Positions 2,536 to 23,497 are shown, counted from the stretch's first letter. The stretch is DNA of 32,456 nucleotides from Oscillospiraceae bacterium (GCA_030527085.1 JAUNBN010000001.1:1-32456), one strand, 5' to 3'. Numbers and translations: made by a program. Notes: a model not told the origin generated them from the sequence alone.

Positions 2536-2741
2536 CCGCGCACCTCGAAGACCTCGCCTGAAGCTTCGAAAACGTCTCCCGGCCTGAGCTTTCGTCCTCT
2601 TTGCAGGCAGGTTTCGCCGTTTACTTTAACTTCACCCTCTGAAATCAACTCTTTTGCCTGCCCGCCGCTCAAAACCGCGCCGCAAAGCTTTAGGGCCTGA
2701 GATAGGCTTATGTATTCGCTTTTTATAAAAAGCTCGCTCAT
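2526..2741 (-). CDS. yaaA: S4-domain RNA-binding protein (YaaA-like)
   Basis: 71-aa ORF with an S4-like segment (GQAKELISEGEVKVNGE..RGRKLRPGD). It lies in the conserved slot between dnaN and recF and overlaps the dnaN stop by 4 nt. Confidence 0.8.
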   Translation of the reverse strand: MSELFIKSEYISLSQALKLCGAVLSGGQAKELISEGEVKVNGETCLQRGRKLRPGDVFEASGEVFEVRGCT

Positions 2742-3844
2742 TCGTTCTTGATGCGTACGGGAAGCACCAGGAAGAGAAAGTCGTCGCCCTCGGGCGGGAC
2801 TATCTTCATCGGGGAGGAGGCTCCCGAAATCTCGAGCACTACCTCCTCAAGGCCGCTGTTTCTCAAAGCGTCGAGCAGATAGCGGTTGTTGAAGCCCATC
2901 TCTATGCCTTCGCCCTCTATCTCGCAGTCCATCTCGTCGTAGGAGCTGGCTATTCCCGTAACGCAGGTTATGGTTAGCTTTCCCTCGCCGAAGATGAGCC
3001 GGACGGGGCTCTTGAAGCGGTCGGTTATTATGAGGGATACCCTCTCTATTGCGTCGTAGAACTCCTTGACTCCGATTTTAACCTTGGTCGTATATCCCTT
3101 GGGCACCGCCTTGCGGTAGTCGAGAAAATCGCCCTCCAAAAGGCGCGTGACTACGGTATAGGAGCCCAAGCGGAACACCGCCGAGCGGCGCGCCGTGCCT
3201 ACGGTCACCTCGTTTTCGCCGTCGCCCGCGAGCTTCGCTATCTCTGAGAGAGTCTTTCCGGGAACTATAAAGCTTTTGTTTTCCATGAGCGAGGCCCCGC
3301 GGCAGCGCGCCACGGCCAGGCGGTAGCCGTCTACGGAAACTACCGTGAGCTCGTCTCCCTCTATTATGAATTTTGAGCCCGTGTGTACCGGACGCTGGTC
3401 GCTGGGAGAGACGGCGTAGATGGTTTTGTTTATAAGCTCCTTTAAAAGCGAGGCCTTTATTGAAAGGGTATTGTCAGTGTCCGGCACGGGCAACTCGGGA
3501 AAGTCAGCGGCGGGTATGCCTATAAAATTGAAAACCGTTATGCCGCCCTTTACCGTGGTCTTAAAATCGCTCTTGGCCTCTATTTCTACGCGCTCGCTCT
3601 CTATTCTGCGGACCATGTCTCCCAGAAAGCGCGCATTTAAGACTATCTCGCCCGACTCTTCCACTTCGGCCTCGAGCTCGGTCATTATGCCGATTTCAAG
3701 GTCGAAGGCCGTAAGCAACACTCCGTCTTCGCGGCATTTGAAGAGTATTCCCTCGAGCGCGGCCAGAGTGGACTTTGCGCTCACCGCTCTGGATACTCCG
3801 TTTATAGCCTCCAGCAGCGCGGATCTTTCGCAGCTTATTTTCAT
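2738..3844 (-). CDS. dnaN: DNA polymerase III beta sliding clamp
   Basis: 368 aa, length and position typical of DnaN immediately downstream of dnaA. N-terminus is MKISCERSALLEAINGVSRAVS. Confidence 0.93.
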   Translation of the reverse strand: MKISCERSALLEAINGVSRAVSAKSTLAALEGILFKCREDGVLLTAFDLEIGIMTELEAEVEESGEIVLNARFLGDMVRRIESERVEIEAKSDFKTTVKGGITVFNFIGIPAADFPELPVPDTDNTLSIKASLLKELINKTIYAVSPSDQRPVHTGSKFIIEGDELTVVSVDGYRLAVARCRGASLMENKSFIVPGKTLSEIAKLAGDGENEVTVGTARRSAVFRLGSYTVVTRLLEGDFLDYRKAVPKGYTTKVKIGVKEFYDAIERVSLIITDRFKSPVRLIFGEGKLTITCVTGIASSYDEMDCEIEGEGIEMGFNNRYLLDALRNSGLEEVVLEISGASSPMKIVPPEGDDFLFLVLPVRIKNE

Positions 3845-4078
3845 TTTTATCCCCTCGATTTCTTTATATATAAACTAACTTAAATTTTAGTAGTATTAGG
3901 GCCTGTCAAAGCGGTAGAAGTATTTAAAAACAACAGAAGCAGTCTCTATTTTTAAAAGGTTGAAATCGTGCGTTCGGCCGTTTAAAAATTGTGGAAGATT
4001 TAAAATTGTTCCGTTCTTTGTGAAAATCCTCATATTTTAAACGTTGAATCTACAAAAAGCCGTTTAAAACCTCGGCAC
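3845..4078. other. AT-rich dnaA-dnaN spacer, candidate oriC unwinding region
   Basis: This stretch is much more AT-rich than the surrounding DNA. TTTAAAA-type motifs occur at 3923, 3951, 3981, 3999, 4035 and 4063. Only degenerate DnaA-box-like 9-mers were seen, e.g. TGTGGAAGA at 3990-3998 (7/9 to TGTGGATAA). The location matches the Bacillota oriC DUE position. Confidence 0.5.
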
Positions 4079-5386
4079 TCATGTCTTGGAGTTTTTGATA
4101 ATGTCCTCTATGAGCTCTTTCGTTCTCGTGTCGTTCTGCATGAGCTTCTCCACCTTGCTCGTGCCGTAGACAACCGTGGCGTGATTGCGGCCGCCGAACT
4201 CCGCGCCTATGCGCTCCATGGTCATGCCCGTGACCTCTCTTACTATATACATCGCTACCTGGCGCGGCAGGGAAACGGAGGCGTTCTGCTTGGCTGAGCG
4301 TATGTCCTCGGGAGAGACGTTGTAGGTGCGCGCGACCTCATTTACTATCTTCTCGACAGTAACGGGTATTGGCTGCTGCTCGGAGAGTATGTCCCTTATG
4401 GCGTTCTGCGCAAGTCCTATCGAGGGGCTTATGCCGTCCATCTGGTAATAGGCTCCCAGCTTCTTTACCGCGCCCTCGAGCTGGCGCACGTCGTTCTTGA
4501 CGTTTACGGCTATATACTCGGCCACCTCGCTCGAAATCTTGAGACCGAGCTGCTCGGCCTTGCGGTAGATAATGGATATACGCGTCTCCACGTCCGGCGG
4601 CTGAACGTCCGCGAGCAGACCCCATTCAAAGCGGGTGCGCAGCCTCTCCTCGAGGGATTTTATCTCTTTTGGCGGCCTGTCCGAGGAGATGACTATCTGC
4701 TTGTGGTCGTTGTGCAGGGCGTTGAAGGTGTGGAAGAACTCCTCCTGAGTGGCCTCCTTGCCGCCTATGAACTGCACGTCGTCCACGAGCAGGACGTCTG
4801 CGGAGCGGAATTTATCGTGGAAGGCCTCGGTGCTGCCCGAGCTTATCGCGGCGATGAGCTCGTTTGTGAATTGGTCGCCGCCTATGTATATTACTTTAAG
4901 CTGCGGGTGAGTTTTTGTCAGCGAGTTCTTAATGGCGAGCAGCAGGTGGGTCTTGCCTAAGCCCGGCGCGCCGTAGATGAAGAGAGGGTTGTAGGTGCTC
5001 GCGGGCGAGGCGGCCACGGCCTGCGCCGCCGCGTGGGCAAAGCGGTTGTCCTGACCTACTATGAAGTTCTCGAAGGTGTATTGGCCCTCAGGGCCGAAGC
5101 TCTGCGCGCCGCTCTTTTCGCCCTCGTCCCCGGGCATCTCGGCACGGCTGACGATTTTAATCTCGATATCAAAGCCCATGACCTGCGAAAAGGCGCGCTT
5201 GAGCAGGGGCAGGTAGCGCTCCTCAACCGTTGATTTTATAAAGGCCGTGCTCACGGAGAGCGTGGCCTTGCCGTCGTCGTAGGAGACGGGCTCAAGACCC
5301 TTGAGCCAGAGGTTGTAGATGGTCTCGGCCTCCGACAGCCGGCAATAATCCTTTACCGCGTTTAAGCACTGCTCGAAAGATTCCAT
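4079..5386 (-). CDS. dnaA: Chromosomal replication initiator DnaA
   Basis: 435 aa with AAA+ Walker A GAPGLGKTHLL and a C-terminal DNA-binding domain (VAMYIVREVTG..IGAEFGGRNHATVVY). Confidence 0.97.
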   Translation of the reverse strand: MESFEQCLNAVKDYCRLSEAETIYNLWLKGLEPVSYDDGKATLSVSTAFIKSTVEERYLPLLKRAFSQVMGFDIEIKIVSRAEMPGDEGEKSGAQSFGPEGQYTFENFIVGQDNRFAHAAAQAVAASPASTYNPLFIYGAPGLGKTHLLLAIKNSLTKTHPQLKVIYIGGDQFTNELIAAISSGSTEAFHDKFRSADVLLVDDVQFIGGKEATQEEFFHTFNALHNDHKQIVISSDRPPKEIKSLEERLRTRFEWGLLADVQPPDVETRISIIYRKAEQLGLKISSEVAEYIAVNVKNDVRQLEGAVKKLGAYYQMDGISPSIGLAQNAIRDILSEQQPIPVTVEKIVNEVARTYNVSPEDIRSAKQNASVSLPRQVAMYIVREVTGMTMERIGAEFGGRNHATVVYGTSKVEKLMQNDTRTKELIEDIIKNSKT

Positions 5387-5530
5387 TGGCCGCTCTCTCT
5401 TTCTAAAATACTACAAATATATATGTAAGAATTTTAGCATATCGTGAGCTTTCTTTCAACAGAAAAAGCCGCGGATTTATGTGCAAATTATGATAATAAA
5501 TTTTAACTGTCTCAGTAAAAATGACGAAGC
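5387..5530. promoter_or_regulatory. AT-rich dnaA upstream region (dnaA promoter, possible second oriC module)
   Basis: AT-rich DNA lies directly upstream of dnaA. By eye only 6-7/9 DnaA-box-like matches were found, e.g. TTTTCCATA near 5533 and TTATGTGCA near 5477. Confidence 0.4.
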
Positions 5531-5666
5531 TGTTTTCCATAAGAAAGGAGCGCTCCCGCCCTGCGTTTTTTTACTGTACGCGCTGCCTCGCCGCCTGAAA
5601 ATGGGAGAAAACCCACGCGGAGGGAGACTCCCACGCTTCTGAGAGCAGCCCTTTCGTGCTGAAGCT

Positions 5667-5705
5667 GTGTTTTGTTTTCCCTCCTTCGACGGGGAAACAG
5701 AACAC
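5667..5705 (-). repeat. Repeat-family hairpin, apparently inverted relative to the other copies
   Basis: The sequence is GTGTTTTGTTTTCCC-TCCTTCGAC-GGGGAAACAGAACAC. The arms pair at 13/15 plus two T:G pairs. The reverse complement reads CCCCGTCGAAGGAGGG, like the family core CCACCGTCGAAGGCGGGG at 24753. GGGAG.CTCCC-type termini lie nearby (5622-5632). Confidence 0.45.
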
Positions 5706-5734
5706 TAAACATTCCGGAGGCGTCCCGGTCTCTT

Positions 5735-5824
5735 GGGAGTGACCTGTAAGCGTGTAATGTGCTGTCTTTCCCCCGCCGGAGGCGGGGAAAAGACAGCGAA
5801 AAAACAACGCAACGGGACACTCCC
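5735..5824 (+). mobile_element. MITE-like palindromic element, best-preserved copy
   Basis: Termini are GGGAGTGACCT (5735) and GGGACACTCCC (5814-5824), whose reverse complement is GGGAGTGTCCC (9/11 match). The central hairpin 5761-5797 is GCTGTCTTTCCCCCGCC-GGA-GGCGGGGAAAAGACAGC. Identical 8-bp direct repeats GGTCTCTT flank it at 5727-5734 and 5825-5832. It has no coding capacity. Confidence 0.6.
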
Positions 5825-5839
5825 GGTCTCTTTTAGCGC

Positions 5840-5867
5840 TTGACATCGCCGAGCGCTGTGTTATATA
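5840..5867 (+). promoter_or_regulatory. Sigma-70-type promoter of the rpmH operon
   Basis: TTGACA (5840-5845), a 16-nt spacer, then TGtTATATA extended -10 (5859-5867). It lies 37 nt upstream of the rpmH ATG. Confidence 0.6.
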
Positions 5868-5903
5868 CTTATAAACCGCAAGGTTTTCAGCAAGGAGAAG
5901 AAA

Positions 5904-6038
5904 ATGCAACCGACTTATCATCCCAAAAAGCGCACCCGCAAGCGCGTCCACGGCTTTATGAAGCGCATGGCCACCTCCAACGGACGCAAGGTTCTTGCGC
6001 GAAGGCGCGCGCGCGGCAGGGCCCGCCTGAGCGCCTGA
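5904..6038 (+). CDS. rpmH: 50S ribosomal protein L34
   Basis: The ORF translates to [44 protein letters not shown] (44 aa). AGGAGAAG Shine-Dalgarno is present. It is too short for the ORF track. Confidence 0.95.
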
Positions 6039-6073
6039 GAGCCGCCGCAAAAGCGGAGGCTCTTATTTTTTAA

Positions 6074-6418
6074 ATGGCAGATAAAGGCCCCTCAAGGCCC
6101 ACCTCTCTCAACCGCAACTGGCAGTTCGCGCGCGCCTACAAAAGCAAAAAGCGCTTTTCCTGCGCCTATTTTACGACCTATGTGGCGCGGGGGCGCTTTG
6201 GAGTGAGGCTGGGCGTCAGCGCCTCGAAGAAGCTCGGCTGCGCGGTCAAGCGCAACCGGGCGCGCAGGATAGTCAAGGCCGCCGCGTGCGAGCTGCTCAA
6301 AAACGCGGGCGGCTCTTTCGACATAGTTTTCGTCTGCCGCGCGGCCTGTCTTGAAAAAAAGTCCACCGAGCTCATACCCCATATGAAGCGCCATCTCGAG
6401 GGCGCGGGTGTGCTTTAA
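6074..6418 (+). CDS. rnpA: Ribonuclease P protein component
   Basis: 114 aa, basic, with KKLGCAVKRNRARR (RNR motif). It follows rpmH in the conserved position. Confidence 0.9.
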   Translation: MADKGPSRPTSLNRNWQFARAYKSKKRFSCAYFTTYVARGRFGVRLGVSASKKLGCAVKRNRARRIVKAAACELLKNAGGSFDIVFVCRAACLEKKSTELIPHMKRHLEGAGVL

Positions 6419-6652
6419 ATGATAAAACGCGCGCTCGTTTTTCTGATACGCGGCTATCAAAAATATATAAGCCCTCTGCTGGGGGACCACTGCCGCTTTG
6501 TGCCCAGCTGCTCCCAGTACACTCTGGAGGCCATAGAAACCCGCGGGGTACTTATGGGCCTGCTGCTCGGCTTCTTTAGAATTTTAAGGTGTAATCCTCT
6601 GTTTAAAGGCGGCTACGATCCCGTACCACAGAGGCCGGCGCGCCTGAAATAA
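6419..6652 (+). CDS. yidD: Membrane protein insertion efficiency factor YidD
   Basis: 77 aa with [25 protein letters not shown] and RCNPL..GGYDPVP. The start abuts the rnpA stop. Confidence 0.92.
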
Positions 6653-6681
6653 TAATCTCCGACGGAGGATTTGAAATTTAA

Positions 6682-7740
6682 ATGTTTCAGCAGATTTGGG
6701 ACCTGATAGCGATACCTCTCGGCTTCATAATGAAGTATTGCTATATCTTTGTTCACGACATTCTCAATCTGCCCATAGCCTACATATGGGCGCTCTTCCT
6801 CTTTACCCTCATTACCAAAATTCTGCTCTTTCCGCTCTCTTTAAAGCAGCAGAAGTCCTCGGCGAAAATGGCGGCCTTCCAGCCGCTGATGGCCGACGTT
6901 CAAAAGACCTACGCCAACGACAAAAAGCGCCAGCAGGAGGAGATGCTCAAGCTCCAGGAGGAGATGGGCTATAATCCCATGTCCGGCTGCCTGCCTCTGC
7001 TTATACAGTTCCCGATAATCTTCGGCCTCATAGAGGTCATTTACAAGCCCCTCACCTATATGCTCACGGTTCCCGCCGAGCTGGTAAGCGAGCTTACCAG
7101 CATAACCAACTCGCTCGTTACCACCTCCAACACCCGCCTTATAGAAACCTCGATAATAGAGCAGATTAAGACCAATATCGGAGCCTTTTCCTCCCTTACC
7201 GCCAACCCCGAATACGCCGACTGGATAGAAAGAATAGCCAACCTCGACATGAGTATAGGCTCCATTAACCTCTGGGACGTGCCGAGCCTTCAGAACCCCT
7301 CGCTCGTCTGGCTTATTCCGGCGTTTTCCGTCGTCACAATGCTCGCCTCCTCGCTCATCAACCTCAGGACGAGCGGCAGCGCCGACGCGCAGGGCGGCGC
7401 GCAGTCCCGCGTCATGATGATAGTAATGTCGCTGATGTTCGCGGTGTTCTCTTTTATGTATCCCGCGGGCTTCAGCCTCTACTGGGCCTTCCAGAACATA
7501 ATCCTCATCGGCCAGTCCTTCCTGCTCAAGAGGATAGTAGACCCCGAAAAGCTCAAAGAGCAGATGCGCCTCGAGATGGAGGAAAAGAAAAAATCCGCCA
7601 AGAAGAAAAAGAAGAACATCGTCAAAATTAAAGACGAGAAGACCGGCGAGGTAATTGAAAAGGAGCTGTCCGTAGCCGAGCTGGAAAAGCTCAGGCTGCA
7701 GAAGGCGCGCACTCTTAAGGACTCGCCCTACGATTGCTGA
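6682..7740 (+). CDS. yidC: YidC/Oxa1-family membrane insertase (SpoIIIJ-like) with Lys-rich C-terminal tail
   Basis: 352 aa, polytopic. It has the insertase motif region MAAFQPLM..MLKLQEEMGYNPMSGCLPLLIQFPIIFGL and a KKKSAKKKKK tail. Confidence 0.93.
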   Translation: MFQQIWDLIAIPLGFIMKYCYIFVHDILNLPIAYIWALFLFTLITKILLFPLSLKQQKSSAKMAAFQPLMADVQKTYANDKKRQQEEMLKLQEEMGYNPMSGCLPLLIQFPIIFGLIEVIYKPLTYMLTVPAELVSELTSITNSLVTTSNTRLIETSIIEQIKTNIGAFSSLTANPEYADWIERIANLDMSIGSINLWDVPSLQNPSLVWLIPAFSVVTMLASSLINLRTSGSADAQGGAQSRVMMIVMSLMFAVFSFMYPAGFSLYWAFQNIILIGQSFLLKRIVDPEKLKEQMRLEMEEKKKSAKKKKKNIVKIKDEKTGEVIEKELSVAELEKLRLQKARTLKDSPYDC

Positions 7741-13269: not shown

Positions 13270-13384
13270 AAGCGCGCTCAATATTTTTCTCCCTGCACTA
13301 AGCCAGGATATTTACCTCGGCGGAAACCTTAGATTAGCTCGCGCGGTCGGATGGGTTCCGTTCGCGCGGGATCAGCGTTCCTGA

Positions 13385-13424
13385 CCCCGCCTTTGGCGGG
13401 GGTAATGCAGCTTCAAATACCAGC
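13385..13424 (+). repeat. Repeat-family core hairpin plus tail
   Basis: CCCCGCC-TTT-GGCGGGG (13385-13401) is followed by GTAATGCAGCTTCAAATACCAGC. This parallels GGAATACCGCCTCAAATACCCGC of the 21441-21532 copy. Confidence 0.4.
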
Positions 13425-13576
13425 CTTTGAATCACTTGCGCAGCCGGTATGCTGTTGCGCCCCGGACTCGCCCGTGATATTCTAAGACAAAAGCAGCCTT
13501 GGACGGCCGCACCGTCTGCCGCGCTGTTCTTTTTTCCCGCGCGTCGGGCAGAATTATTTAAAGACAGGTTTTATTA

Positions 13577-14314
13577 ATGGGCAACGCCAAACTTAAAAGC
13601 GGCGAATATATAGCGGTGAGGGACGGCGCGGCCTTGAGCTTCGGCGGAAATCAGCGCTGGCTTGCCGAGGGAAGGCCGGAAGCTCTAGCCAAGTGCTCCT
13701 GCGGAGCCGTGGCGGCCGCCGATCTCTTTTTATATCTCGCGCGCTCGCGCCCTCAGTGGGAGAGCCCGCTTTGCGCGGCCTTTGCGCGCGCCGAAGAGCT
13801 TTCAAAGGAGGAATATCTCCGATACCTGTCCGAGGTGCTCGCTCGCTACGCGCGCCCGCTGCCCTATTTCGGCAAGACGGGCTTCGGCCTGGCGCAGGGC
13901 ATAAACCGCTATTTCGCCGAAAACCGGCTGGGACTGAAGGCCAAGTGGCGGCAGACGGCTCTCGACGGCGGCGCGCTTATGAGAATAGCGGCGCAGCTGG
14001 CGGACGACCTGCCCGTCATTCTCTCCATACCCTCCTTTCCCCTGAAAATCAAATCCCTTAATATGTACCGCCGCTCGCGCGAGGGCCGCGGCCTTACGGA
14101 CGCGCTGCGCTACAAAAACCGAAGCGGCCATTTTGTAACCGCCTGCGCGCTCGAGGACAGGGTGTTGACCGTTTCCTCCTGGGGCAAGCGCTTTTATCTC
14201 GACTGTGAAGAATACCTGCGCGCGGCGCGGCTGCCCGCCGGGCTTATCTCCTGCGGCTATATGACGCTCGAGGAAAGAGCGTCAAGAACAGCTCTGATTG
14301 GCGAAGGCTTATGA
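13577..14314 (+). CDS. Hypothetical protein, possible papain/C39-like Cys-His fold (weak)
   Basis: 245-aa ORF with coding-like composition. CSCGAVAAADLFLYL and a later SGHFVTA resemble Cys and His motifs of C39-like peptidases. The stop overlaps the next start (ATGA). Confidence 0.6.
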   Translation: MGNAKLKSGEYIAVRDGAALSFGGNQRWLAEGRPEALAKCSCGAVAAADLFLYLARSRPQWESPLCAAFARAEELSKEEYLRYLSEVLARYARPLPYFGKTGFGLAQGINRYFAENRLGLKAKWRQTALDGGALMRIAAQLADDLPVILSIPSFPLKIKSLNMYRRSREGRGLTDALRYKNRSGHFVTACALEDRVLTVSSWGKRFYLDCEEYLRAARLPAGLISCGYMTLEERASRTALIGEGL

Positions 14315-14916
14315 AAGCGCATAAATACGAGCTGCTGCTGGCGGCGGTAATAGCCGCGAGAGCTACCTCATTTATATTCAGCAAAATAGTCCTTCAAACG
14401 ATGGAGACTTTCAATCTGCTCGCAATAAGGTGCTTGCTGGCCTTTTTTCTTTTGCTTATTGTTTTCCGCAAAAAAATCCCGCAGATTAAAAAAGGTGAGA
14501 TTGTTGCCGGGATTATTGTCGGAGCTCTGTACTATCTCACTATAGCGAGCGAGCTTACCGCGCTCAAGACAACAGCTTCCTCTACGGTAGCCCTTCTGGA
14601 AAACTGCGCCATCATCTTCGTGCCTTTGTTTACCTCGATCCTTTGCAAAAAGCCTTTGGAAAGTACAACTATAATAAGCGCGTCTGTCGCCATGTTGGGG
14701 GTATTCTGCCTGACCGCCCAGTTCGGTGGGCTGTCGCCCGGTCTTGTTTTCGGCCTGCTTTCCGCCGTCCTTTATGCCTCCGCCATCATAGTGACGGAAA
14801 AAATCACCCACAGGGAACTTGACCCCTTTTGTATCGGCATCGTTCAGGTCGGAACGACGGCGGGGGGGAAGACATCGAAAAATCCACGCGGCGGGTCACA
14901 CCCTGCTTCAGCTTGA
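14311..14916 (+). pseudogene. Truncated EamA/DMT-family transporter (first EamA domain only)
   Basis: About 178 aa of EamA-like hydrophobic repeats, ending near ..RELDPFCIGIVQ. The reading frame then runs into a repeat-family half-copy (14859-14903), giving the non-membrane tail VGTTAGGKTSKNPRGGSHPASA. Full-length EamA proteins have two such domains. Confidence 0.55.
14859..14903 (+). repeat. Right half of a MITE-like element fused to the truncated EamA ORF
   Basis: GGCGGGGGGGAAGACATCGAAAAATCCACGCGGCGGGTCACACCC aligns with the right half of copy 5781-5824 (GGCGGGGAAAAGACAGCGAAAAAACAACGCAACGGGACACTCCC). No left arm is present. Confidence 0.5.
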
Positions 14917-14936
14917 GGTATCCGCGTTTTTACCGC

Positions 14937-15287
14937 TTAAACTACCTCTCTCAGCAGCTCCTCCGCGGAGATTTTGTAGAGCTTTGCGAGCGCCAGCAGG
15001 TTCGAGGTGCTGGGGTCGGAAAGCCCCTGCTCCCATTTCGAGACCGCCTGGCGGCTCACGCCCAGAGCCTCGGCCACAAACTCCTGCGTCATTTTGCACT
15101 CAGTGCGCCGCTTTTTCAGCGCCTCTCCGAGCGACTGCTTGACAGCGGCTTTCTCTTCCCTCACGTCTTTGGAGCGCAGATACTTGAGCAGCGCCCTTAT
15201 CACAAGAGTCAGAAGAAAGACAAAGAGAGCGGCTGCGAGCAGAATAAAAACGAACATCAATACGCTTGCTGATGCGTTTACTTTCAT
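14937..15287 (-). CDS. Membrane-anchored XRE-family HTH regulator (N-terminal TM helix, C-terminal HTH)
   Basis: The ATG at 15287 is preceded by AAGGAGG. The protein starts MKVNASASVLMFVFILLAAALFVFLLTLVI (TM). It then has the HTH_3-like LKKRRTECKMTQEFVAEALGVSRQAVSKWEQG. The longer 184-aa track ORF lacks a Shine-Dalgarno. Confidence 0.8.
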   Translation of the reverse strand: MKVNASASVLMFVFILLAAALFVFLLTLVIRALLKYLRSKDVREEKAAVKQSLGEALKKRRTECKMTQEFVAEALGVSRQAVSKWEQGLSDPSTSNLLALAKLYKISAEELLREVV

Positions 15288-15355
15288 TTTAAACACGCCT
15301 CCTTTCAGTGCTTCAAGCTTAGCACGGTCGGCGGTTGCCTTAAAGCAAGTATGGC

Positions 15356-15370
15356 GCAACTTCAAGTTGC
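15356..15370. promoter_or_regulatory. Perfect palindrome, candidate XRE operator
   Basis: GCAACTT-C-AAGTTGC abuts a minus-strand TAAAAT (-10-like, 15371-15376) upstream of the XRE gene. Direct repeats GCCT(T)AAAGCAAGT flank it at 15337-15350 and 15395-15407. Confidence 0.4.
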
Positions 15371-15503
15371 ATTTTAGGTGAAACGGCTTTATGAGCCTAA
15401 AGCAAGTCTGTATCTCCGTTTTTTGCCAGTATAGCACAAAGACCCTTCGGCGCAAGGGCGGGATTGCGCGCCGAACGCGGTGATTTCCCACGTCAGCAGG
15501 GCC

Positions 15504-15610
15504 GCATAAGCTTTTTGGGAATCCACCCCCGCTGAAGGCGGGGGTGGATTGATATTGGCCTTCGGCATGGGGAATACAGCGAAAAACCCGCGCGGCGGAA
15601 CACTCTCGGG
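15504..15610 (+). repeat. MITE-like repeat copy
   Basis: The head is GCATAAGCTTTTTGGG. The perfect 13-bp hairpin is AATCCACCCCCGC-TGAAG-GCGGGGGTGGATT (15520-15550). The tail ACAGCGAAAAACCCGCGCGGCGGAACACTCTCGGG parallels ACAGCGAAAAAACAACGCAACGGGACACTCCCGG of copy 5735-5824. Confidence 0.5.
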
Positions 15611-15622
15611 CAGCGTAAAGCC

Positions 15623-15650
15623 TTGCGTGATTTGACCGAGGCTGTATAAT
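15623..15650 (+). promoter_or_regulatory. Candidate promoter of the large membrane-protein gene
   Basis: TTGCGT, a 16-nt spacer, then TATAAT (15645-15650). It lies 36 nt upstream of the ATG at 15686, just after the repeat terminus. Confidence 0.4.
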
Positions 15651-15685
15651 AGAGCCAAACCCGTTTTAAGAGGGAGCCTGAATCC

Positions 15686-17653
15686 ATGAGCTTTGCCCTT
15701 TCCTTTGTTTCAATTCTGCTTATAGCCCTTTTGTTCATAAGGCGCTTCAAGGTGAACGCGGCGCTCGCGCCCTTCGCCTCCATAGCCTTCATCACGCTGC
15801 TGCTTATATTCACCGGCGTGTTCAATTTGCTTATTGTGGGGATAATTCTGGTCTACGCGCTGGCGGTCTTTTCCCTTTGGTACTGCCTTATAAGGGAGAG
15901 AAAGCGTCTCGCCGAGACCGCGCGGGAGTTCTTTAAGCCCGGTATGGTGTTTTTTATTGTGTCCTCGCTTGCCTTTCTTGTTGCGCTGGGCGACAAGCAG
16001 CCCTATTTCATGATTTGGGACGAGTTCTCCTTCTGGGGCATAGCCGTCAAGAACATGTGGCTGAACGGCAGGCTCTACACCCTCTTTACCAGCAGCATGA
16101 TAGGCGTCTCCTACCCGCCCGCGCTGCCGGTCTTCAGCTATTTCATGCAGTGTACGGCGGGGGTCTTTACCGAGTGGCTGGTCTATCTCGCCTACGATAT
16201 TCTGATGATGTCCGTCTTCGCCATGCTCTTCGCGCGGCTCAAATGGAAGAACTATATTGCCCTGCCGGTTCTGAGCTTTACCTCCGTCGCCGCCCTCTAT
16301 ATTTTCTGGGAGAGCTTCGAGGGCCTCAAGCTCTACTCGACCTCCTATTCGGACGTGCCGCTGGGCGTTGTTTTCGGCGCGGTGCTCGCGGCCTGGTTCT
16401 CCTCGGACGAAAGGGGCTTTCCGCGCTGGTCGGTAACGGCGCTGGCGCTGCTGCTGCTGCCGATGATGAAGGACACCGGCCTCGCCTTCGCGCTCGTGGC
16501 GGCGGCTGTCTGCGCCTTCGATATGATAATTTCGCGGAGCTTCCCGAGCGAGCGGCTCTTTAAATGGGAGAAGCCCTTCGTTAAATATTTTTACGCGCTG
16601 GCCTTCTTTATAGCCGTGCTCGTGAGCTATGAGGTCTGGACGCTGCATCTCGCCTCGGCGGTCTCTATCGAGCGCAACTCCGTGCCCTATGAGTACGGCC
16701 TTGTGGATATGCTCGCGGGGCGCGACCCCTTCTTCAACGAAATCTGGAAGCGCATGGTTTCAGCGCTGACCGAGCTCAAGCTCGTAACCTTCGGCAACGT
16801 CAAAACAATGCTCATCGCCTTTACCTTAACCCCGCTCGTCCTCGCGCCCTTCTGCAAGCATAAGCGCAATTCGCTCAGGTTAGTTATAAACTCGTTTATG
16901 CTGCTCGCGGGCTTCTTCCTCTACTACCTCATGATGGCCTACCTCTACACGGCGGTATTCCATTCGAGCGAATACTCCCTGACCTCCTACCAGCGCTACA
17001 TAAGCTCCTACGCCATAGGCTGGCTCATTGCCATTCTGGCGATGTGCTTCGGCGAGATATCCCGGTGGCGCTGGGTTAAGGCGGCGAAGGCTCCGGCAGT
17101 TGCCGCCTGCGGCGTTTTGCTCTGGTCGCTGTTCTACTACACTCCCGTGCCGCTCAAAAACTACGTCTTTATAAGCGAGGAGGTCTATCAGGACCTTCTG
17201 CCCCTGCGCCAGCTCATGATGGACAACGCGGCGGACTTCGCCGGAGCCTTTACGAGCGAGGACAGGATTTATTACGTCTGCCAGGACTCGAACGGCGGCG
17301 AGTGGTTCTATTTCAACTACGAATTCCAGCCCGCTTTCACCGTCCAGACGCTGGAGGGCGGCGACTTCGTCGCCAAGGGCTCCGAGCACGACGGCCCCTA
17401 CGACGTCGAGGCAGACCGCGCCGACTTCGAGGCCTACCTGCGCGAAGAGGAGGTTGACTACGTCTTCGTACAGAAGATAGACGACTACTTCGCGGAGGAG
17501 TTCGCGCCCCTGTTCTCGGACAATCTTATGGGTTTTTTTGACGGCACTGCCAGCATGTACAAGATAACCTACACCGAGATGGGGGGGATGAGTCTCATTC
17601 CCGTCTATTCCGGAGTGAACGCCCTCGCCCTTAAAGAGCAGTACGGCTACTGA
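15686..17653 (+). CDS. Large polytopic membrane protein, possible GT-C-fold glycosyltransferase
   Basis: 655 aa with more than 10 predicted TM segments and a soluble C-terminal part. An acidic loop motif, MIWDEFSFWG, follows the early TM helices, reminiscent of the DE motif of ArnT/PMT-type enzymes. AGGGAG Shine-Dalgarno is present. Confidence 0.8.
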   Translation: MSFALSFVSILLIALLFIRRFKVNAALAPFASIAFITLLLIFTGVFNLLIVGIILVYALAVFSLWYCLIRERKRLAETAREFFKPGMVFFIVSSLAFLVALGDKQPYFMIWDEFSFWGIAVKNMWLNGRLYTLFTSSMIGVSYPPALPVFSYFMQCTAGVFTEWLVYLAYDILMMSVFAMLFARLKWKNYIALPVLSFTSVAALYIFWESFEGLKLYSTSYSDVPLGVVFGAVLAAWFSSDERGFPRWSVTALALLLLPMMKDTGLAFALVAAAVCAFDMIISRSFPSERLFKWEKPFVKYFYALAFFIAVLVSYEVWTLHLASAVSIERNSVPYEYGLVDMLAGRDPFFNEIWKRMVSALTELKLVTFGNVKTMLIAFTLTPLVLAPFCKHKRNSLRLVINSFMLLAGFFLYYLMMAYLYTAVFHSSEYSLTSYQRYISSYAIGWLIAILAMCFGEISRWRWVKAAKAPAVAACGVLLWSLFYYTPVPLKNYVFISEEVYQDLLPLRQLMMDNAADFAGAFTSEDRIYYVCQDSNGGEWFYFNYEFQPAFTVQTLEGGDFVAKGSEHDGPYDVEADRADFEAYLREEEVDYVFVQKIDDYFAEEFAPLFSDNLMGFFDGTASMYKITYTEMGGMSLIPVYSGVNALALKEQYGY

Positions 17654-17690
17654 GGCTGAATATATAAGCAGGAAGAAGCTGGAAATCGTT

Positions 17691-17828
17691 TTGAGCCTTA
17701 CAATCGCCGCGGTAGCAGCTGCTGTGGCTGTCGTCTGCGCTCCCGAAAGCCGCTGGGGCCTTGCGGCGGTATTCGCGCTGATTGCCGGTCTGAATATTGC
17801 AGGTTTTTTTCTGAGAGCTAGGTTTTAA
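17691..17828 (+). CDS. Possible 45-aa two-TM micro-protein (TTG start)
   Basis: LSLTIAAVAAAVAVVCAPESRWGLAAVFALIAGLNIAGFFLRARF, with genome-like codon usage. The Shine-Dalgarno is weak and the start is non-ATG. It is not in the ORF track. Confidence 0.25.
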   Translation: MSLTIAAVAAAVAVVCAPESRWGLAAVFALIAGLNIAGFFLRARF

Positions 17829-17835
17829 GGGAACA

Positions 17836-17867
17836 GCCTCAGCGCCTCATGCGCGTTGCGCCGAGGC
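17836..17867 (+). terminator. GC-rich stem-loop downstream of the membrane-protein gene
   Basis: GCCTCAGCGC..GCGCCGAGGC pairs at 9/10 bp. The following T-run is weak (AATATCTTT). Confidence 0.35.
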
Positions 17868-17898
17868 GCAATATCTTTAAGTTGAGCTATATATCCAT

Positions 17899-18010
17899 GT
17901 GTCCCAGCTCGAATGCGCGTGCTTTTTAGGGCGTCTCCCCCACCAAAAAAAGGAGACACTCTGACTCAATGGCATTGACCGAAGGCGGCATACCGTTTCG
18001 AGCCGCTCCT
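17899..18010 (+). repeat. MITE-like repeat copy (GTCCCAGCTCG-type terminus)
   Basis: The left end is GTGTCCCAGCTCGAATGCGCGTGCTTTTTAGGG. The hairpin is GCGTCTCC..GGAGACAC (17931-17959). An internal CCGAAGGCGG core remnant is present. The right end is GAGCCGCTCCT. The head is near-identical to the copy at 20618. Confidence 0.5.
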
Positions 18011-18017
18011 TAAATGC

Positions 18018-18057
18018 AAAGCCCGCCTGCCGAAGAAAATATCGGCAGGCGGGCTTT
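18018..18057 (-). terminator. Intrinsic terminator downstream of cdd
   Basis: AAAGCCCGCCTGCCGA-8 nt-TCGGCAGGCGGGCTTT is a perfect 16-bp stem, T-rich after the stem on the minus strand. It lies 20 nt past the cdd stop. Confidence 0.6.
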
Positions 18058-18077
18058 AATAGTCGAGGGAAAAGACC

Positions 18078-18494
18078 TCAGAAGCGATCGTCTCCCCACC
18101 AGTTTGGGAGCAGCTCCTGCAGAGTGACGGTCTTTCTCTTCTCGTAATCCAGCAATATTTCCATGCTTCGATTCTCGGAATTGAGCTGCATGAAAAACTC
18201 CCGGCACGCGCCGCAGGGCGTCCCGCTGTCGCCGCCCGAGGGCGCTTTGTCCCTGAAGGCGATGAGCCGTTTGATTTTTGTCTGGCCGCTGTTCAAAAGC
18301 ATATTCAGAGCCGCAGCTCTCTCGGCGCACAGATTCAAAACCCCGCCGCAGCTTTCTACGCAAAAGCCCGTGAAAATCTCGCCGCTGCCGCTTTCAAGGG
18401 CGCAGACCACATTGCGCGCGTATATGAAGGGGGAAATTTCTTCGGGGCGGTAAAGCTCCGCGGCTTTCAAATAAAGCGTTTTCCAAATATCCAT
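18078..18494 (-). CDS. cdd: Cytidine deaminase
   Basis: 138 aa with zinc-ligand motifs CAERAA and PCGACREF, typical of the small tetrameric Cdd. Confidence 0.88.
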   Translation of the reverse strand: MDIWKTLYLKAAELYRPEEISPFIYARNVVCALESGSGEIFTGFCVESCGGVLNLCAERAAALNMLLNSGQTKIKRLIAFRDKAPSGGDSGTPCGACREFFMQLNSENRSMEILLDYEKRKTVTLQELLPNWWGDDRF

Positions 18495-18511
18495 TTGCTT
18501 AAAGTCTCCTT

Positions 18512-18880
18512 TCAGCCCAGCAGCTTCTCGAGCAGCGCGCGTATCTCCGAGTCCGAAAGCCCCAGCGAGACGGCGCGCTCGAGCGCCGCGCGAAGCTCGG
18601 CCTCGGCAAGCTCAAAGCGGCGGTCGGCGAGCTCGGGCTCCTTATGGGGTGCTACGAAGCAGCCGCGCCCGGTAACGGTGTAGATAAGCCCCTCGCGCTC
18701 GAGCTCCTCCCAGGCCTTTTTTACGGTTATAACGCTGACCCGAAGCTCGAGCGCAACGCTTCTGATGGGCGGCAGGCAGTAGGATCCCTCCAGCTCGCCC
18801 TTTATTATCTGCGAGCGGAGCTGCTCGTATATCTGCTTATATAAAGGCGTCTCCGAGCCGTTGTTTAAAACGATGTTCAC
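18512..18880 (-). CDS. GntR-family transcriptional regulator, YtrA subfamily
   Basis: 122 aa with PLYKQIYEQLRSQIIKGEL..LPPIRSVALELRVSVITVKKAWEELEREGLIYTVTGRGCFV. The short C-terminus is typical of YtrA-type regulators. Confidence 0.88.
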   Translation of the reverse strand: MNIVLNNGSETPLYKQIYEQLRSQIIKGELEGSYCLPPIRSVALELRVSVITVKKAWEELEREGLIYTVTGRGCFVAPHKEPELADRRFELAEAELRAALERAVSLGLSDSEIRALLEKLLG

Positions 18881-18883
18881 GGC

Positions 18884-19543
18884 TTAGAGATCTACCCTTT
18901 CAAAGAGCGCCTGCGCGCGCCTCGAGGCCGTGAGCGTTGCGGCAAAGTAAATAAGCGCGGCCGCGCCCAGCAGTGCGAGGCGCAGAGGCCGTCCCGCGGC
19001 AAGCCAGTTATCCAGATTGGTTTTAAGGGCGGGTATGAGCTGTACTGCGACCTCGGCGGCGATAAGCCAGAGCGAGGCCGCGCCCCCGGCAAAGCAGAGC
19101 GCCCTGCCCGCGCTGTAGCCGGTCTTGTAAAAGATGGGCAGAAAGAGCGCGTTGAATATGGCGAACATAATCAGAATTATCGCGTAGAAGGCGGCGTTGG
19201 CCTCTATGCCGACGGTGTTCTCCCCGAGGGGGTTGATGTTGCGGCCTATCAGGGCGAAGGGCACGGAGATCAAAATATTGAAGAGCTGGATTATAACTAT
19301 CATCAAAGTGCGCGCCCTCACTACGTCGCGCTTCTCCACCGGCAGCAGCGCCGTGAAGAGCACGTCCTTGTTCTCGCGCCCGTTAAGGAAGATGAAAAAG
19401 ATTTCCAGGCAGGTGTAAATAAAGGCCACGGTGTAGGGGTAGGAGGGAATAAGCAGCATAAGGCCGAATAGCGGGAAGATTAAGACCGTCGCGTGGCGCG
19501 CGAGGGTAAACTCCTTGTAGAGCAGGCTGCCCATGTAATTCAT
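18884..19543 (-). CDS. ABC-2-type transporter permease
   Basis: 219 aa with about 6 TM segments. It overlaps the upstream ATPase stop by 4 nt, as in YtrA-associated ABC modules. Confidence 0.75.
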   Translation of the reverse strand: MNYMGSLLYKEFTLARHATVLIFPLFGLMLLIPSYPYTVAFIYTCLEIFFIFLNGRENKDVLFTALLPVEKRDVVRARTLMIVIIQLFNILISVPFALIGRNINPLGENTVGIEANAAFYAIILIMFAIFNALFLPIFYKTGYSAGRALCFAGGAASLWLIAAEVAVQLIPALKTNLDNWLAAGRPLRLALLGAAALIYFAATLTASRRAQALFERVDL

Positions 19544-20403
19544 ATCCTCACCTCCGAGTCCGAGGGCTCCTCTGAGTAAATCATAATGGTTTCTATGTCC
19601 GGCCGCGCTGTCTGCAGAGAGCTCAAAAGCTCCCTCTTTTCGGCGAGGGCGAGTCCCGTGAAGCCGAAGGCGTTCTGCTTATAGCCTATAAGGTTTTGCT
19701 TCAGGCCCTCGTCGAGCTGTTCGGCGCGCCCGCTTACCGCTATATAGGAATCTATAAAATCCTCGCGCTCGCAGCTCTTTACTATCTTGCCGTCTTTTAT
19801 ATAGGTAATGAAGTCCGCGCACTTTTCAAGGTCGCTCGTTATGTGAGTGGAAAAGAGCACGCTGTGCCCACCGTCCTCTATCACCTTTCGGAAGATTTGC
19901 AGCAGCTCGTCGCGCGAGACGGGGTCCAGCCCGCTGGTGGGCTCGTCGAGAATCAGCAGCCGCGCGCGGCGCGAGAGCGCCAGCGCCAGCGAGAACTTGA
20001 CCTTCATGCCCTCGGAGAGCTCCTCAACCTTCTTGTTTTCGTCCAGCTCAAAGCGCCGCAGGTATTCGCGGTAGCCCGCCTCGTCCCATTCGGGGTAAAA
20101 GCGCCGCTCTACCGCGCTTATGGCGGAGAGCCTGCGCTTCAAATAGAAATCGAAGCCGCCCAGCACAAAACCTATCTCCCGCTTACACTGAAGTTCCTTG
20201 CTCTTAAAATCCAAGCCGCAGATTTCGACCTCGCCCGAGTCGGGGTGAACGAGGCCGAGCATGCTCTTGAGCGTAGTGGTCTTGCCCGCGCCGTTGCGGC
20301 CTATAAAGCCCATTATATAACCCTCGTCCAAATCGAAGCTCACGCCGTCGAGCGTGAAGCTCTCGTAACGCTTTGTAAGGTTCCTGACCTTTAGAATTGC
20401 CAT
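19540..20403 (-). CDS. ABC transporter ATP-binding protein
   Basis: MAILKVRNLTKRY, Walker A GRNGAGKTTT, signature LSEGMK, Walker B LLILDEPT. The ATG at 20403 is preferred over the GTG at 20442, which lies inside the operator palindrome. Confidence 0.92.
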   Translation of the reverse strand: MAILKVRNLTKRYESFTLDGVSFDLDEGYIMGFIGRNGAGKTTTLKSMLGLVHPDSGEVEICGLDFKSKELQCKREIGFVLGGFDFYLKRRLSAISAVERRFYPEWDEAGYREYLRRFELDENKKVEELSEGMKVKFSLALALSRRARLLILDEPTSGLDPVSRDELLQIFRKVIEDGGHSVLFSTHITSDLEKCADFITYIKDGKIVKSCEREDFIDSYIAVSGRAEQLDEGLKQNLIGYKQNAFGFTGLALAEKRELLSSLQTARPDIETIMIYSEEPSDSEVRI

Positions 20404-20420
20404 CGCCTTGCCTTTCAAAA

Positions 20421-20445
20421 ATTGTGTATATGGTGTATACACAAT
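20421..20445. promoter_or_regulatory. Perfect inverted repeat, candidate YtrA/GntR operator
   Basis: ATTGTGTATA-TGGTG-TATACACAAT overlaps the -10 and the predicted transcription start of the ABC operon promoter. Confidence 0.55.
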
Positions 20446-20471
20446 ATAACACTATGCTCGCGCTCTGTCAA
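20443..20471 (-). promoter_or_regulatory. Sigma-70-type promoter of the ABC/GntR/cdd cluster
   Basis: On the minus strand: TTGACA (20471-20466), a 17-nt spacer, TATATT (20448-20443). Confidence 0.6.
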
Positions 20472-20617
20472 GCCCGGGGAAAATATTTCCAATGAAAACG
20501 ACGCCCTTCTTTTATTAAAATGGAAATTTGCGGGAGCGAACCGAAAGCGGGTTCAACGCTGCATTTACCCCGATGAAGGCGCCATGGCATTTAAGCTCGG
20601 GCGGCGAAACAGCCTCT

Positions 20618-20742
20618 GTGTTCCGGCTCGGCTGTGCGTGCTTTTTAGGGTGTATCCCCACGTTTTTGGCGCGGGGATACACCCTAAGCTAATGACATTG
20701 GGGAAATATAGTGAACAAAGGCGCTCACCGGGTACGCTCCCT
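20618..20742 (+). repeat. MITE-like repeat copy immediately upstream of the recombinase gene
   Basis: The left end is GTGTTCCGGCTCGGCTGTGCGTGCTTTTTAGGG. The perfect 15-bp hairpin is TTAGGGTGTATCCCC-13 nt-GGGGATACACCCTAA (20645-20687). The right end is GGGTACGCTCCCT (20730-20742). Confidence 0.5.
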
Positions 20743-20769
20743 GATTTTGACTTTAAGGGGAAAGAGGGA

Positions 20770-21360
20770 ATGCAGACTTACGGCTACGCGAGGGTATCGA
20801 CAAAGGAGCAGAACGAGGACCGCCAGCTTCTGGCGCTCAAGGAATTCGGCGTAAAGCCGCGCAATATCTATACGGACAAGCTCTCGGGCAAGGACTTCGA
20901 GCGCCCGCAGTACAAGCGGCTGCTTAAAAAGCTGCGCGATGGCGATGTGGTGGTGATACACTCCATAGACCGCCTCGGGCGCAACTACAGCGAGATTTTG
21001 GAGCAGTGGCGGATAATAACCAAGGAAAAAGGCGCGCACATGGTAGTTCTCGACATGCCCCTGCTGGATACTCGCCGCCGCGAGGAGAACCTCACGGGCA
21101 TGCTTATTGCAGACATAGTTTTGCAGCTGCTCTCCTATGTTGCGCAGACGGAGCGCGAGGCGATTCGCAAGCGTCAGCGTGAGGGAATAGCGGCCGCGCG
21201 GCTTCGCGGGGTTAAGTTCGGAGCGCCCGGCAAGGAAACTCCCGAGGAGTTCTACATACTGCGCGAGCAGTGGAGGCGCGGCGAAATTTCCGGCCGCGAG
21301 GCAGCCCGCAGGCTGGGCATAGCCGCCCAGACCTTCACGCGCTGGTGCGAGGAGAGGTAG
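20770..21360 (+). CDS. Small serine recombinase (resolvase/invertase family)
   Basis: MQTYGYARVSTKEQNEDRQ catalytic N-terminus, DRLGRN motif, C-terminal HTH GREAARRLGIAAQTFTRW. AAAGAGGGA Shine-Dalgarno precedes the ATG at 20770. The 312-aa track ORF is an upstream read-through. Confidence 0.9.
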   Translation: MQTYGYARVSTKEQNEDRQLLALKEFGVKPRNIYTDKLSGKDFERPQYKRLLKKLRDGDVVVIHSIDRLGRNYSEILEQWRIITKEKGAHMVVLDMPLLDTRRREENLTGMLIADIVLQLLSYVAQTEREAIRKRQREGIAAARLRGVKFGAPGKETPEEFYILREQWRRGEISGREAARRLGIAAQTFTRWCEER

Positions 21361-21406
21361 GCTTTACGAAAGCGCGCAAATCGGCTGCAGCTCCGCTTCG
21401 CAGCAT

Positions 21407-21433
21407 AAAAAAGCCGCCTAAAGAAGGCGGCTT
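21407..21433 (-). terminator. Intrinsic terminator (minus-strand polarity)
   Basis: On the minus strand, AAGCCGCC-7 nt-GGCGGCTT is followed by TTTTTT. It lies ~155 nt downstream of the lipoprotein stop, with a repeat copy in between. Confidence 0.6.
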
Positions 21434-21440
21434 AGCAGGT

Positions 21441-21532
21441 AGGGAGTGTCCCTATTGCGCGCTTTTTGCGGTATTCCCCCGCCGAAGGCGGGGGAATACC
21501 GCCTCAAATACCCGCTTTTAGGGCCGCTCCCT
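21441..21532 (+). mobile_element. MITE-like palindromic element, well-preserved copy
   Basis: Termini are AGGGAGTGTCCC (21441-21452) and GGGCCGCTCCCT (21521-21532). The perfect 16-bp hairpin is GCGGTATTCCCCCGCC-GAA-GGCGGGGGAATACCGC (21468-21502). The whole element folds as one long imperfect palindrome. Flanks TAGCAGGTA and TGGCAGCTA match 7/9. Confidence 0.6.
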
Positions 21533-21588
21533 GGCAGCTATAATGGCTGTGATATGTATTAAAACATTAAAAACTTCAAAATCTTCTT

Positions 21589-22200: not shown

Positions 22201-22235
22201 ATGCAAAGACCGCCTTTTAAGCTTATATCGGCAAG

Positions 22236-22264
22236 ATTTTAGCATAAAGCCGCCCGCATGGCAA
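22236..22264 (-). promoter_or_regulatory. Promoter of the lipoprotein gene
   Basis: On the minus strand: TTGCCA (22264-22259), a 17-nt spacer ending in TGc, TAAAAT (22241-22236). This is an extended -10 arrangement. Confidence 0.55.
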
Positions 22265-22300
22265 CGCCGCGGCCGCGGGGGAGCGCCTCTTTTGAGTGCT

Positions 22301-23329: not shown

Positions 23330-23411
23330 TTGCAGCACCGCCGTTAGTGTTTGCTGGCAGTATTGCCCGCCGCGCGGCGACTTATGCGCGGCAGGGCTGG
23401 AAATTGCGGGG

Positions 23412-23497
23412 GAGCTGTCGTATTGCCCGCCATTTTATCAGGGTAGCCCCCCGGAAGGGTGGAGCTACCCTGAAAAGTACGCATAATCGAGCTGGGA
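23412..23497 (+). repeat. MITE-like repeat copy
   Basis: The hairpin is CAGGGTAGC..GCTACCCTG (23439-23472) with a CCGGAAGGG core. The tail CTGAAAAGTACGCATAATCGAGCTGGGAAAC is the reverse complement of the GTCCCAGCTCGAATGCGCGTGC left end seen at 17901. GTATTGCCCGCC is duplicated at 23360 and 23420. Confidence 0.45.

Follow-up and report, generated by a model that had tools for sequence, protein, structure and literature searches.

A probable MITE copy with an 8-bp target-site duplication in the dnaA-rpmH spacer of an Oscillospiraceae bacterium

The Correia elements of Neisseria (CREE/NEMIS) and the RUP elements of Streptococcus pneumoniae are intergenic units of about 100-150 nt whose ends pair and which fold as long hairpins. 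Both are highly abundant and often found near promoters; Correia elements have no partner, while the partner of RUP acts in trans. Both carry a TA (2 bp) duplication and longer, unrelated terminal repeats, and both belong to other phyla, whereas the element described here has an 8-bp duplication, ends of just 11 nt and a different host. REP/REPIN-RAYT systems have in common with our element that they are abundant extragenic palindromes with G+C-rich stems that show compensatory change. However, they lack such terminal inverted repeats, and REP/REPIN and IS200/IS605-derived elements create no target-site duplication, while the element has both. Among insertion sequences, an 8-bp duplication together with ends starting with GG is known for the families IS1595 (IS1016 group, 'GGGgctg'), IS6/IS26, ISL3, IS256 and ISKra4-ISMich2.

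[quoted passage not shown] In bacteria they are defined by a size of 50-800 bp, terminal inverted repeats of at least 10-15 bp, a target-site duplication of 2-10 bp and the absence of a transposase (PMC11602168). The element studied here resembles them in being small and non-coding, in its 11-nt terminal repeats and 8-bp duplication, and in having many intergenic copies with a patchy spread.

The element and its neighbours in the dnaA-rpmH spacer

We analysed a 32,456-nt stretch of DNA from an Oscillospiraceae bacterium (GCA_030527085.1, JAUNBN010000001.1:1-32456), hereafter the window; the best-matching named relatives of its DnaA are Oscillospiraceae MAGs. The window starts with recF, dnaN (2738-3844, minus strand) and dnaA (4079-5386, minus strand). 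A spacer of 517 nt (5387-5903) separates dnaA from rpmH (5904-6038, plus strand), which is followed by rnpA, yidD, yidC, jag, mnmE, mnmG and rsmG. Elsewhere among the window ORFs, a Pfam match places a serine resolvase at about 20779-21360. A consensus scan found two divergent promoters in the spacer, both lying outside the element and both conserved in relatives: that of dnaA (TTGAAA-17-TAAAAT with a TG extension; 5431-5459, minus strand) and that of rpmH (TTGACA-18-TATACT; 5840-5869, plus strand).

Between them, positions 5735-5824 (plus strand) form a 90-nt imperfect palindrome. Its left terminal inverted repeat, GGGAGTGACCT (5735-5745, plus strand), agrees with the reverse complement of the right one, GGGACACTCCC (5814-5824, plus strand), at 9 of 11 positions, and a repeat search extended the match to 13 nt at 85%. 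The same search delimited a central G+C-rich hairpin (5761-5797), whose arms of 17 nt each (5761-5777 and 5781-5797) are 94% complementary, with one mismatch and a 3-nt GGA loop. Folded as single-stranded DNA, the 90-nt segment reached -32.2 kcal/mol (z = -7.3), and none of 200 shuffles was equally stable. Mechanical ORFs running across the element had no Pfam match, so that at 90 nt it falls within the 50-800 bp of a MITE without a transposase gene. Thus, the 9/11 inverted repeats and the 17-bp stem with a single mismatch, which an earlier note had read from the same sequence, are both present, and its statement that the element contains no ORF holds in the sense that the ORFs there match no Pfam family.

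On each side of the element stands an exact copy of GGTCTCTT, the left one at 5727-5734 and the right one at 5825-5832, and we take these to be the two copies of an 8-bp target-site duplication, as flank comparison (see below) suggests. The earlier note had described this repeat as a perfect 8-bp duplication; the 8 nt are indeed exact on both sides, but the longest exact direct repeat is really 12 nt, TCCCGGTCTCTT, at 5723-5734 and 5821-5832. The additional TCCC has two origins: to the right it consists of the last four bases of the element itself, and to the left an older, decayed copy of the same kind ends in it. The exact repeat would measure 12 rather than 8 nt because the intact copy used as its target the GGTCTCTT that immediately followed the terminal TCCC of that older unit.

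The older unit occupies about 86 nt (5641-5726), with a hairpin at about 5664-5705 centred near 5684 and with no duplication remaining. Its ends, read from the sequence, are GAGAGCAGCCC (7/11) and GGAGGCGTCCC (6/11), and when the spacer alone was searched with nhmmer, the family profile matched only its central part (5674-5714, E = 3.7e-5). A third and most decayed copy can tentatively be placed at 5548-5632. Its hairpin is lost, but its right end GGGAGACTCCC fits the family at 10/11, and over 25 nt its right arm shares 76% identity with that of 5735-5824; the profile signal in the spacer alone is weak (nhmmer, E = 0.09-0.3), and we regard this segment as a probable family unit at most. Of the 380 nt that separate the -35 hexamers of dnaA and rpmH, the three units together fill about 285, and therefore this gap appears to be a tolerated landing place: next to essential genes, it seems to bear 285 nt of extra DNA.

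The whole block lies upstream of both the dnaA and the rpmH promoters, whose -35 and -10 hexamers are intact. The element ends 15 nt before the -35 hexamer of rpmH, and the right-hand GGTCTCTT ends 7 nt before it, the distance from TTGACA already given in the earlier note. Upstream of this hexamer the sequence is thus replaced from 15 nt outward.

A dispersed family with recurring 8-bp duplications

Apart from the two decayed units in the spacer, the window holds at least six related copies elsewhere; counting the element itself, at least seven copies or fragments lie within 32 kb, which agrees with the multi-copy habit of MITEs. In a self-comparison (nhmmer, blastn) the identity of the units was about 70%. 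The family profile matched the 90-nt element over its full length (nhmmer, E = 1.5e-15, or 1.4e-18 when the spacer alone was searched). With up to 2 mismatches allowed, the window contains the 11-mer of the ends 16 times against 5.9 expected, a count reached by 0 of 100 shuffles. All window copies are intergenic or lie at gene ends, and the genes around them are arranged divergently, convergently or in tandem.

The second two-ended copy (21442-21531) runs from GGGAGTGTCCC to GGGCCGCTCCC and has a perfect 16-bp central stem; its flanks agree at 2/8, i.e., it has no duplication. The copy at 28393-28485 (plus strand) has a degenerate left end and the right end GGGACACTTCC, also with no duplication. 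Two partial copies were found on the plus strand: the one at 24729-24814 consists of the central hairpin and the right arm and may be rearranged (nhmmer, E = 8.7e-7), and the one at 26770-26852 has a left arm (containing TCTGTAAGCGTGTA) and a hairpin in common with 5735-5824 (73% over 67 nt, E = 4.5e-7). Weak right-half fragments lie at 15539-15607 (plus strand, E = 0.02) and at 14837-14903 (plus strand, E = 0.03), the latter overlapping the 3′ end of an EamA-type ORF. Within the window, then, a duplication is seen only at 5735-5824, and the copies at 21442 and 28393 have either lost theirs or never had one.

A pattern scan for the core hairpin followed by GGGACAC, carried out on one genome per species for 185,579 species, returned 58 loci. 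Repeated matches came from Ruminococcaceae bacterium OttesenSCG-928-I18 (7 loci) and Oscillospiraceae ABMPRH_148_1 (3 loci), and single ones from MGBC163672 and other Oscillospiraceae or Firmicutes MAGs. Many matches occur by chance in high-G+C genomes and do not belong to the family; those in Streptomyces and others, as well as loci L002, L016, L019, L032 and L039/L005, were rejected as chance or unrelated hairpins. A profile built from the window copies recovered full units in the loci of OttesenSCG-928-I18, ABMPRH_148_1, MGBC163672 and the other MAGs, sometimes two per locus, with about 9-10 copies in roughly 48 kb of loci in OttesenSCG-928-I18.

By length the units fall into two classes, one of about 90 nt and one of about 120 nt; the roughly 30 additional nt of the longer class are located in the arms, and the two-ended copies from the window and several gut Oscillospiraceae genomes range from 82 to 138 nt. 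Many copies, in either class, have GGGAGTGTCCC and GGGACACTCCC as their exact ends. The right end of the window element is this family end without change, and its left end corresponds to GGGAGTGTCCC at 9/11, so that the 11-nt terminal repeats, imperfect here, are exact in copies from other genomes. The resemblance extends into the arms, where AACAACGCAACGGGACACTCCC, in the right arm of the element in the window, corresponds to AACAACGTGGCGGGACACTCCC in the arm of OttesenSCG-928-I18. A literature search found no paper containing either GGGAGTGTCCC or GGGACACTCCC, and keyword searches on MITEs in Firmicutes and related groups found no description of this family.

We then compared the 8 nt on either side of every unit in which both ends were recognisable (12 copies). 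The flanks were identical in five cases, CTGTCAAA (L003), GCGGCAGA (L028), ATCCCATT (L031), CCCAAAGC (L033) and GGTCTCTT (the window); two more pairs agreed at 7/8, two at 6/8, and one pair was offset by an indel. Over the 12 copies, 77 of the 96 positions were identical (mean 6.4/8), compared to a mean of 1.9/8 and a maximum of 5/8 when each left flank was set against right flanks taken from different copies (132 pairs), and to 2.7/8 when the flanks were moved 8 nt outward. The results showed that the 8-bp target-site duplication is a property of the family. As in other MITEs, its length is fixed and its sequence variable, the five perfect cases having five different sequences; since the duplicated sequences all differ, they are not part of the element. 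We read this pattern of flanks as the footprint of staggered-cut transposition. The absence of direct repeats around any other complete copy had been named beforehand as an argument against mobility; copies in other genomes are flanked by such repeats, but the other copies in the window are not.

The nearest relatives were compared at the dnaA spacer (L060/L061, L062, L063 and L064, with DnaA 76-81% identical). All four keep both promoters, and none has the element between them; moreover, the family profile had no match within 10 kb on either side of dnaA in any of them. The promoters are 117 nt apart in L060, the closest relative (DnaA 81%), 234 nt apart in L062 and 380 nt apart in the window. 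The distribution of the family is thus patchy, as it occurs in distant Oscillospiraceae and is missing around dnaA in the nearest ones. Conservation of the same 90 bp among relatives, which the earlier note had considered as evidence against an insertion, was therefore not observed.

The predicted empty site reads ...GGAGGCGTCCC-GGTCTCTT-TTAGCGCTTGACA..., and the corresponding exact pattern GCGTCCCGGTCTCTTTTAGCGC had no match in the JGI metagenomes. The protein collection contained no relative above 82% DnaA identity, and therefore an empty site perfect to the base is not to be expected. A hint comes from L062, where one GTCTCTTTTA lies 7 nt upstream of the rpmH -35, the right-hand copy of the same 10-mer in the window lying 5 nt upstream; this single 10-mer, at a slightly different offset, looks like an unoccupied target.

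Taken together, the dispersed family, its conserved ends, the recurring 8-bp duplications and the element-free nearest relatives support the MITE reading that the sequence had originally suggested. We estimate at roughly 0.85 the probability that 5735-5824 is a real MITE copy of a dispersed family that is in none of the libraries searched here.

The central hairpin and competing explanations

To follow the hairpin through the family, 17 oriented copies were aligned. The central stem was paired in 95.5% of cells, and 8 of its 15 pairs changed on both sides, which was reached by none of 500 shuffles; when the partner positions were slid along, pairing did not exceed about 60%. Stems that co-vary include TGCCCTT/AAGGGCA, GTGGTCTC/GAGACCAC and GCGGTATT/AATACCGC. 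The loop is mostly GGA or GAA, and once it is the reverse complement TCC in a copy whose orientation is otherwise the same. Unlike the stem, the 11 end positions vary mainly on one side, and such ends would fit a protein-binding site better than a helix.

Two known kinds of hairpin were considered for this structure and rejected. It is not an intrinsic terminator, as the hairpin at 5761-5797 runs on into GAAAAAAC on the plus and ACATTACA on the minus strand, with no T run, and was not called by the scan; the lone terminator-like call in the element is a 5-bp stem in the right end (5813-5825), reading into the flank. Nor is it an integron attC site, for it is without GTTRRRY ends and without a cassette array.

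The earlier note had also advised a search for a full-length insertion sequence with the same ends, and no partner with matching ends turned up in the window, the fetched loci, plasmids, viral contigs or metagenomes. End pairs 160-6000 nt apart and flanked by a duplication, sought in all loci fetched, gave chance-level candidates only. In plasmids, blastn with two copies returned only matches to the central hairpin. In viral contigs, a 14-mer of the end matched 75 loci, all by chance and none with a family match or a paired end, and the hairpin-plus-end pattern matched nowhere; a 20-mer end of the I18 subfamily had no match in metagenomes. Pfam detected no transposase among the 20 window ORFs scanned, and no RAYT-type gene (Y1 transposase) was present among them. 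For 61 ORFs of family-bearing loci compared with PHROGs, there was no transposase among the best 25 of 60 matched families.

This outcome is in keeping with a REP/REPIN-type palindrome spread by a domesticated Y1 transposase (RAYT, IS200/IS605-like) that acts on single-stranded hairpins, since no DDE partner was found in the sequences searched. Like such palindromes, the copies are numerous and lie between genes, and compensatory changes have preserved their G+C-rich hairpin. Nevertheless, we consider such an origin very unlikely. The 8-bp duplications recur in the family, its ends begin with GGGAG.. rather than with a GTAG-type REP head, and it is the pair of 11-nt termini that is conserved, as in elements with terminal inverted repeats.

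The compensatory changes in the stem could equally be expected of a structured non-coding RNA gene or a cis-regulatory RNA that is repeated for its RNA function, for instance a relative of DUF3800-V (RF02964), a motif of about 96 nt that occurs with a DUF3800-domain gene nearby (Weinberg et al. 2017, PMC5737381). No Rfam family matched the element at the gathering threshold. The best sub-threshold match in a search of the 517-nt spacer was RF02964, which covered exactly 5735-5824 (plus strand) with the whole model (25.8 bits, E = 0.005). The motif has (a/g)GGAG...CUCC(u/c) ends and a UUCCCC...GGGG stem and aligns with the element end to end. However, 25.8 bits is below the gathering score of 37.4, the match disappeared when the whole window was searched, and no other family copy was matched by the model. 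Being sub-threshold and confined to one copy, the similarity was set aside as a chance likeness between long G+C-rich hairpins. Nor would an RNA gene explain flanking 8-bp duplications of unrelated sequence. In addition, the promoter scan found no promoter-like site in the element, the element is probably not transcribed because it lies upstream of both divergent promoters, and no DUF3800 gene was detected by Pfam among the 20 window ORFs scanned, the neighbours being dnaA and rpmH. We therefore hold an RNA function to be highly improbable, even a little more so than a REP/REPIN origin. An element of this kind can all the same be mistaken for a structured RNA, as its near-match to an Rfam motif illustrates.

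The 12-nt TCCCGGTCTCTT repeat could alternatively be a local tandem duplication, or the product of unequal recombination between neighbouring units in the spacer, instead of an insertion footprint. An exact repeat that is 12 nt long and starts inside the end of the element would agree with this, as would the two or three adjacent units and the want of a duplication at the window copies 21442 and 28393. Yet the unit 5641-5726, in which the profile recognises the central hairpin only, is far too diverged from 5735-5824 for a recent tandem duplication, while the 12-mer is exact; the end of this older unit itself accounts for the extra TCCC. Solitary copies elsewhere are flanked by perfect 8-nt duplications, and relative L062 has a single GTCTCTTTTA at the corresponding place. 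Local duplication thus has about as little chance of being right as an RNA function. The least likely explanation of all is a native part of the origin or promoter, such as an element for DnaA binding or unwinding or a site that activates rpmH from upstream. Its place in the dnaA-rpmH spacer, 15 nt before the rpmH -35, would speak for this, but the four relatives examined all lack the element and yet conserve both promoters, related copies sit in many unrelated intergenic regions, and DnaA boxes (TTATCCACA) at up to 1 mismatch number 0 in 5387-5903 and 0 in 3845-4078, those at up to 2 mismatches (1 and 2, respectively) being at or near the window background of 1.9 per kb.

Proposed mode of insertion and its implications

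If 5735-5824 is a MITE copy, as we favour, a DDE-type transposase made elsewhere in the genome would bind both ends, the target would be cut with an 8-nt stagger and the element joined in, and repair of the gaps would leave the duplication. The site of insertion would be the untranscribed stretch that separates the divergent dnaA and rpmH promoters, beside one or two older decayed copies. As for the source of such a transposase, an 8-bp duplication combined with a GGG..TG start would be compatible, by analogy, with IS1595, IS6, ISL3, IS256 or ISKra4-ISMich2. The end GGGAGTGTCCCAAG agrees at 9 of 14 positions with GGCACTGTTGCAAA, which we take to be an IS26-type end, and presumably also fits the IS1595 start 'GGnnnTG'; this is a weak resemblance. 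The hairpin may have been kept because it is needed for transposition or stability, or the palindrome may correct itself by intrastrand templating.

The earlier note had suggested that the insertion may affect promoter or origin function. With both core promoters intact and conserved, and with no consensus DnaA boxes in the spacer, this suggestion is unsupported. Most likely, the copy at 5735-5824 is neutral for rpmH, dnaA and replication initiation; an effect on the promoter is possible but unsupported.

A broader proposal, which we put forward tentatively and rate as rather doubtful, is that the window reveals an undescribed and very abundant MITE family of gut Oscillospiraceae, with about 1 unit per 4-5 kb in the window, conserved ends and a covarying hairpin. 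If this were true, the hairpin would have a role of its own, e.g., as a structure in DNA or RNA that mobilisation requires, or as a portable barrier to transcription; the transposase driving the family would be one so far linked to no catalogued insertion-sequence family; and the repeated landings in the dnaA-rpmH gap would reflect a target preference and not mere tolerance.

In practical terms, the family is now defined by its consensus ends, its classes of about 90 and about 120 nt and its 8-bp duplication, and it is dense in some uncultured gut Oscillospiraceae. Those who annotate such MAGs should mask the repeat or use it as a strain marker. Exact matches to the DnaA and RnpA proteins of the window occurred solely on two short Logan contigs of run SRR24915838. 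Logan contig L140 (run SRR24915838), a separate assembly 99.87% identical to the window, begins at window position 5758 and includes the right half of the element, the right-hand repeat and the rpmH promoter, and a second Logan contig, L001, which is 100% identical, stops at 5603; both short-read contigs checked thus terminate within or adjoining the repeat block.

Close tandem units and contig breaks in the MITE family

In Ruminococcaceae bacterium OttesenSCG-928-I18, units of the MITE family stand in close tandem, separated by few nucleotides, at two loci (L007, 1842-2001, and L038, 1420-1662). The same close tandem arrangement is seen in the dnaA-rpmH spacer of the window; the MITE may prefer landing beside its existing copies. 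Another kind of arrangement is found at 24729-24814, where the hairpin of a partial MITE copy is bracketed by a 46-nt direct repeat (24671-24716 vs. 24782-24827, 72% identical) with the core TAAGCTATTTTAAC...GGAGG.CTTTTAA.TTCG. The presence of this repeat on both sides of the hairpin suggests a rearranged or composite insertion.

Two Logan short-read contigs from the run SRR24915838 match the window around dnaA: L001 covers 3744-5603 with 100% identity, and L140 covers 5758-7309 with 99.87% identity. One contig breaks off right where the MITE block begins or ends and the other within the block, so the MITE family probably breaks up short-read assemblies of these genomes.

The stretch between rsmG and parA/parB

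In three relatives (L062-L064), GidB/RsmG is followed directly by ParB; in the window, rsmG and parA/parB lie about 16.6 kb apart (13270-29928). This stretch, which may represent an inserted island, comprises genes for an EamA transporter, an HTH regulator, ABC transporters, a resolvase, Fe-ADH, MarR and a GGDEF protein, and it houses most of the other MITE copies of the window.

The window also bears a second repeat family, separate from the MITE and unrelated to it, with copies at 17896-17975 (+), 20617-20690 (+) and 23425-23503 (−), and a weak one at 28915-28957. In its units the 5′ part, CATGTGTCCCAGCTCGAATGCGCGTGCTTTTTAGGG, is conserved, and the hairpin after it has a stem that co-varies from copy to copy. 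One copy directly precedes the gene for a serine resolvase (Pfam Resolvase, ~20779-21360), and two copies are in inverted orientation with 5.5 kb between them. Either an invertible segment or a family of leader RNAs could account for these repeats.

DnaA-box search and candidate parS and operator sites

The consensus DnaA box TTATCCACA was absent at ≤1 mismatch from both dnaA-flanking spacers (3845-4078 and 5387-5903); the origin of the source organism is either located elsewhere or built on divergent boxes. At 29961-30025, the 16-bp palindrome TGTTCCACGTGGAACA occurs twice, each time perfectly, inside a 23-nt perfect inverted repeat; judged by the parS consensus, both copies look like parS sites. 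They directly precede the ATG at 30032, likely the true parA start. A 25-nt inverted repeat at 25971-26044, in which the motif TTCGGTACCGAA occurs twice, lies directly upstream of a MarR-family gene (26053-26691) and probably forms an operator pair.
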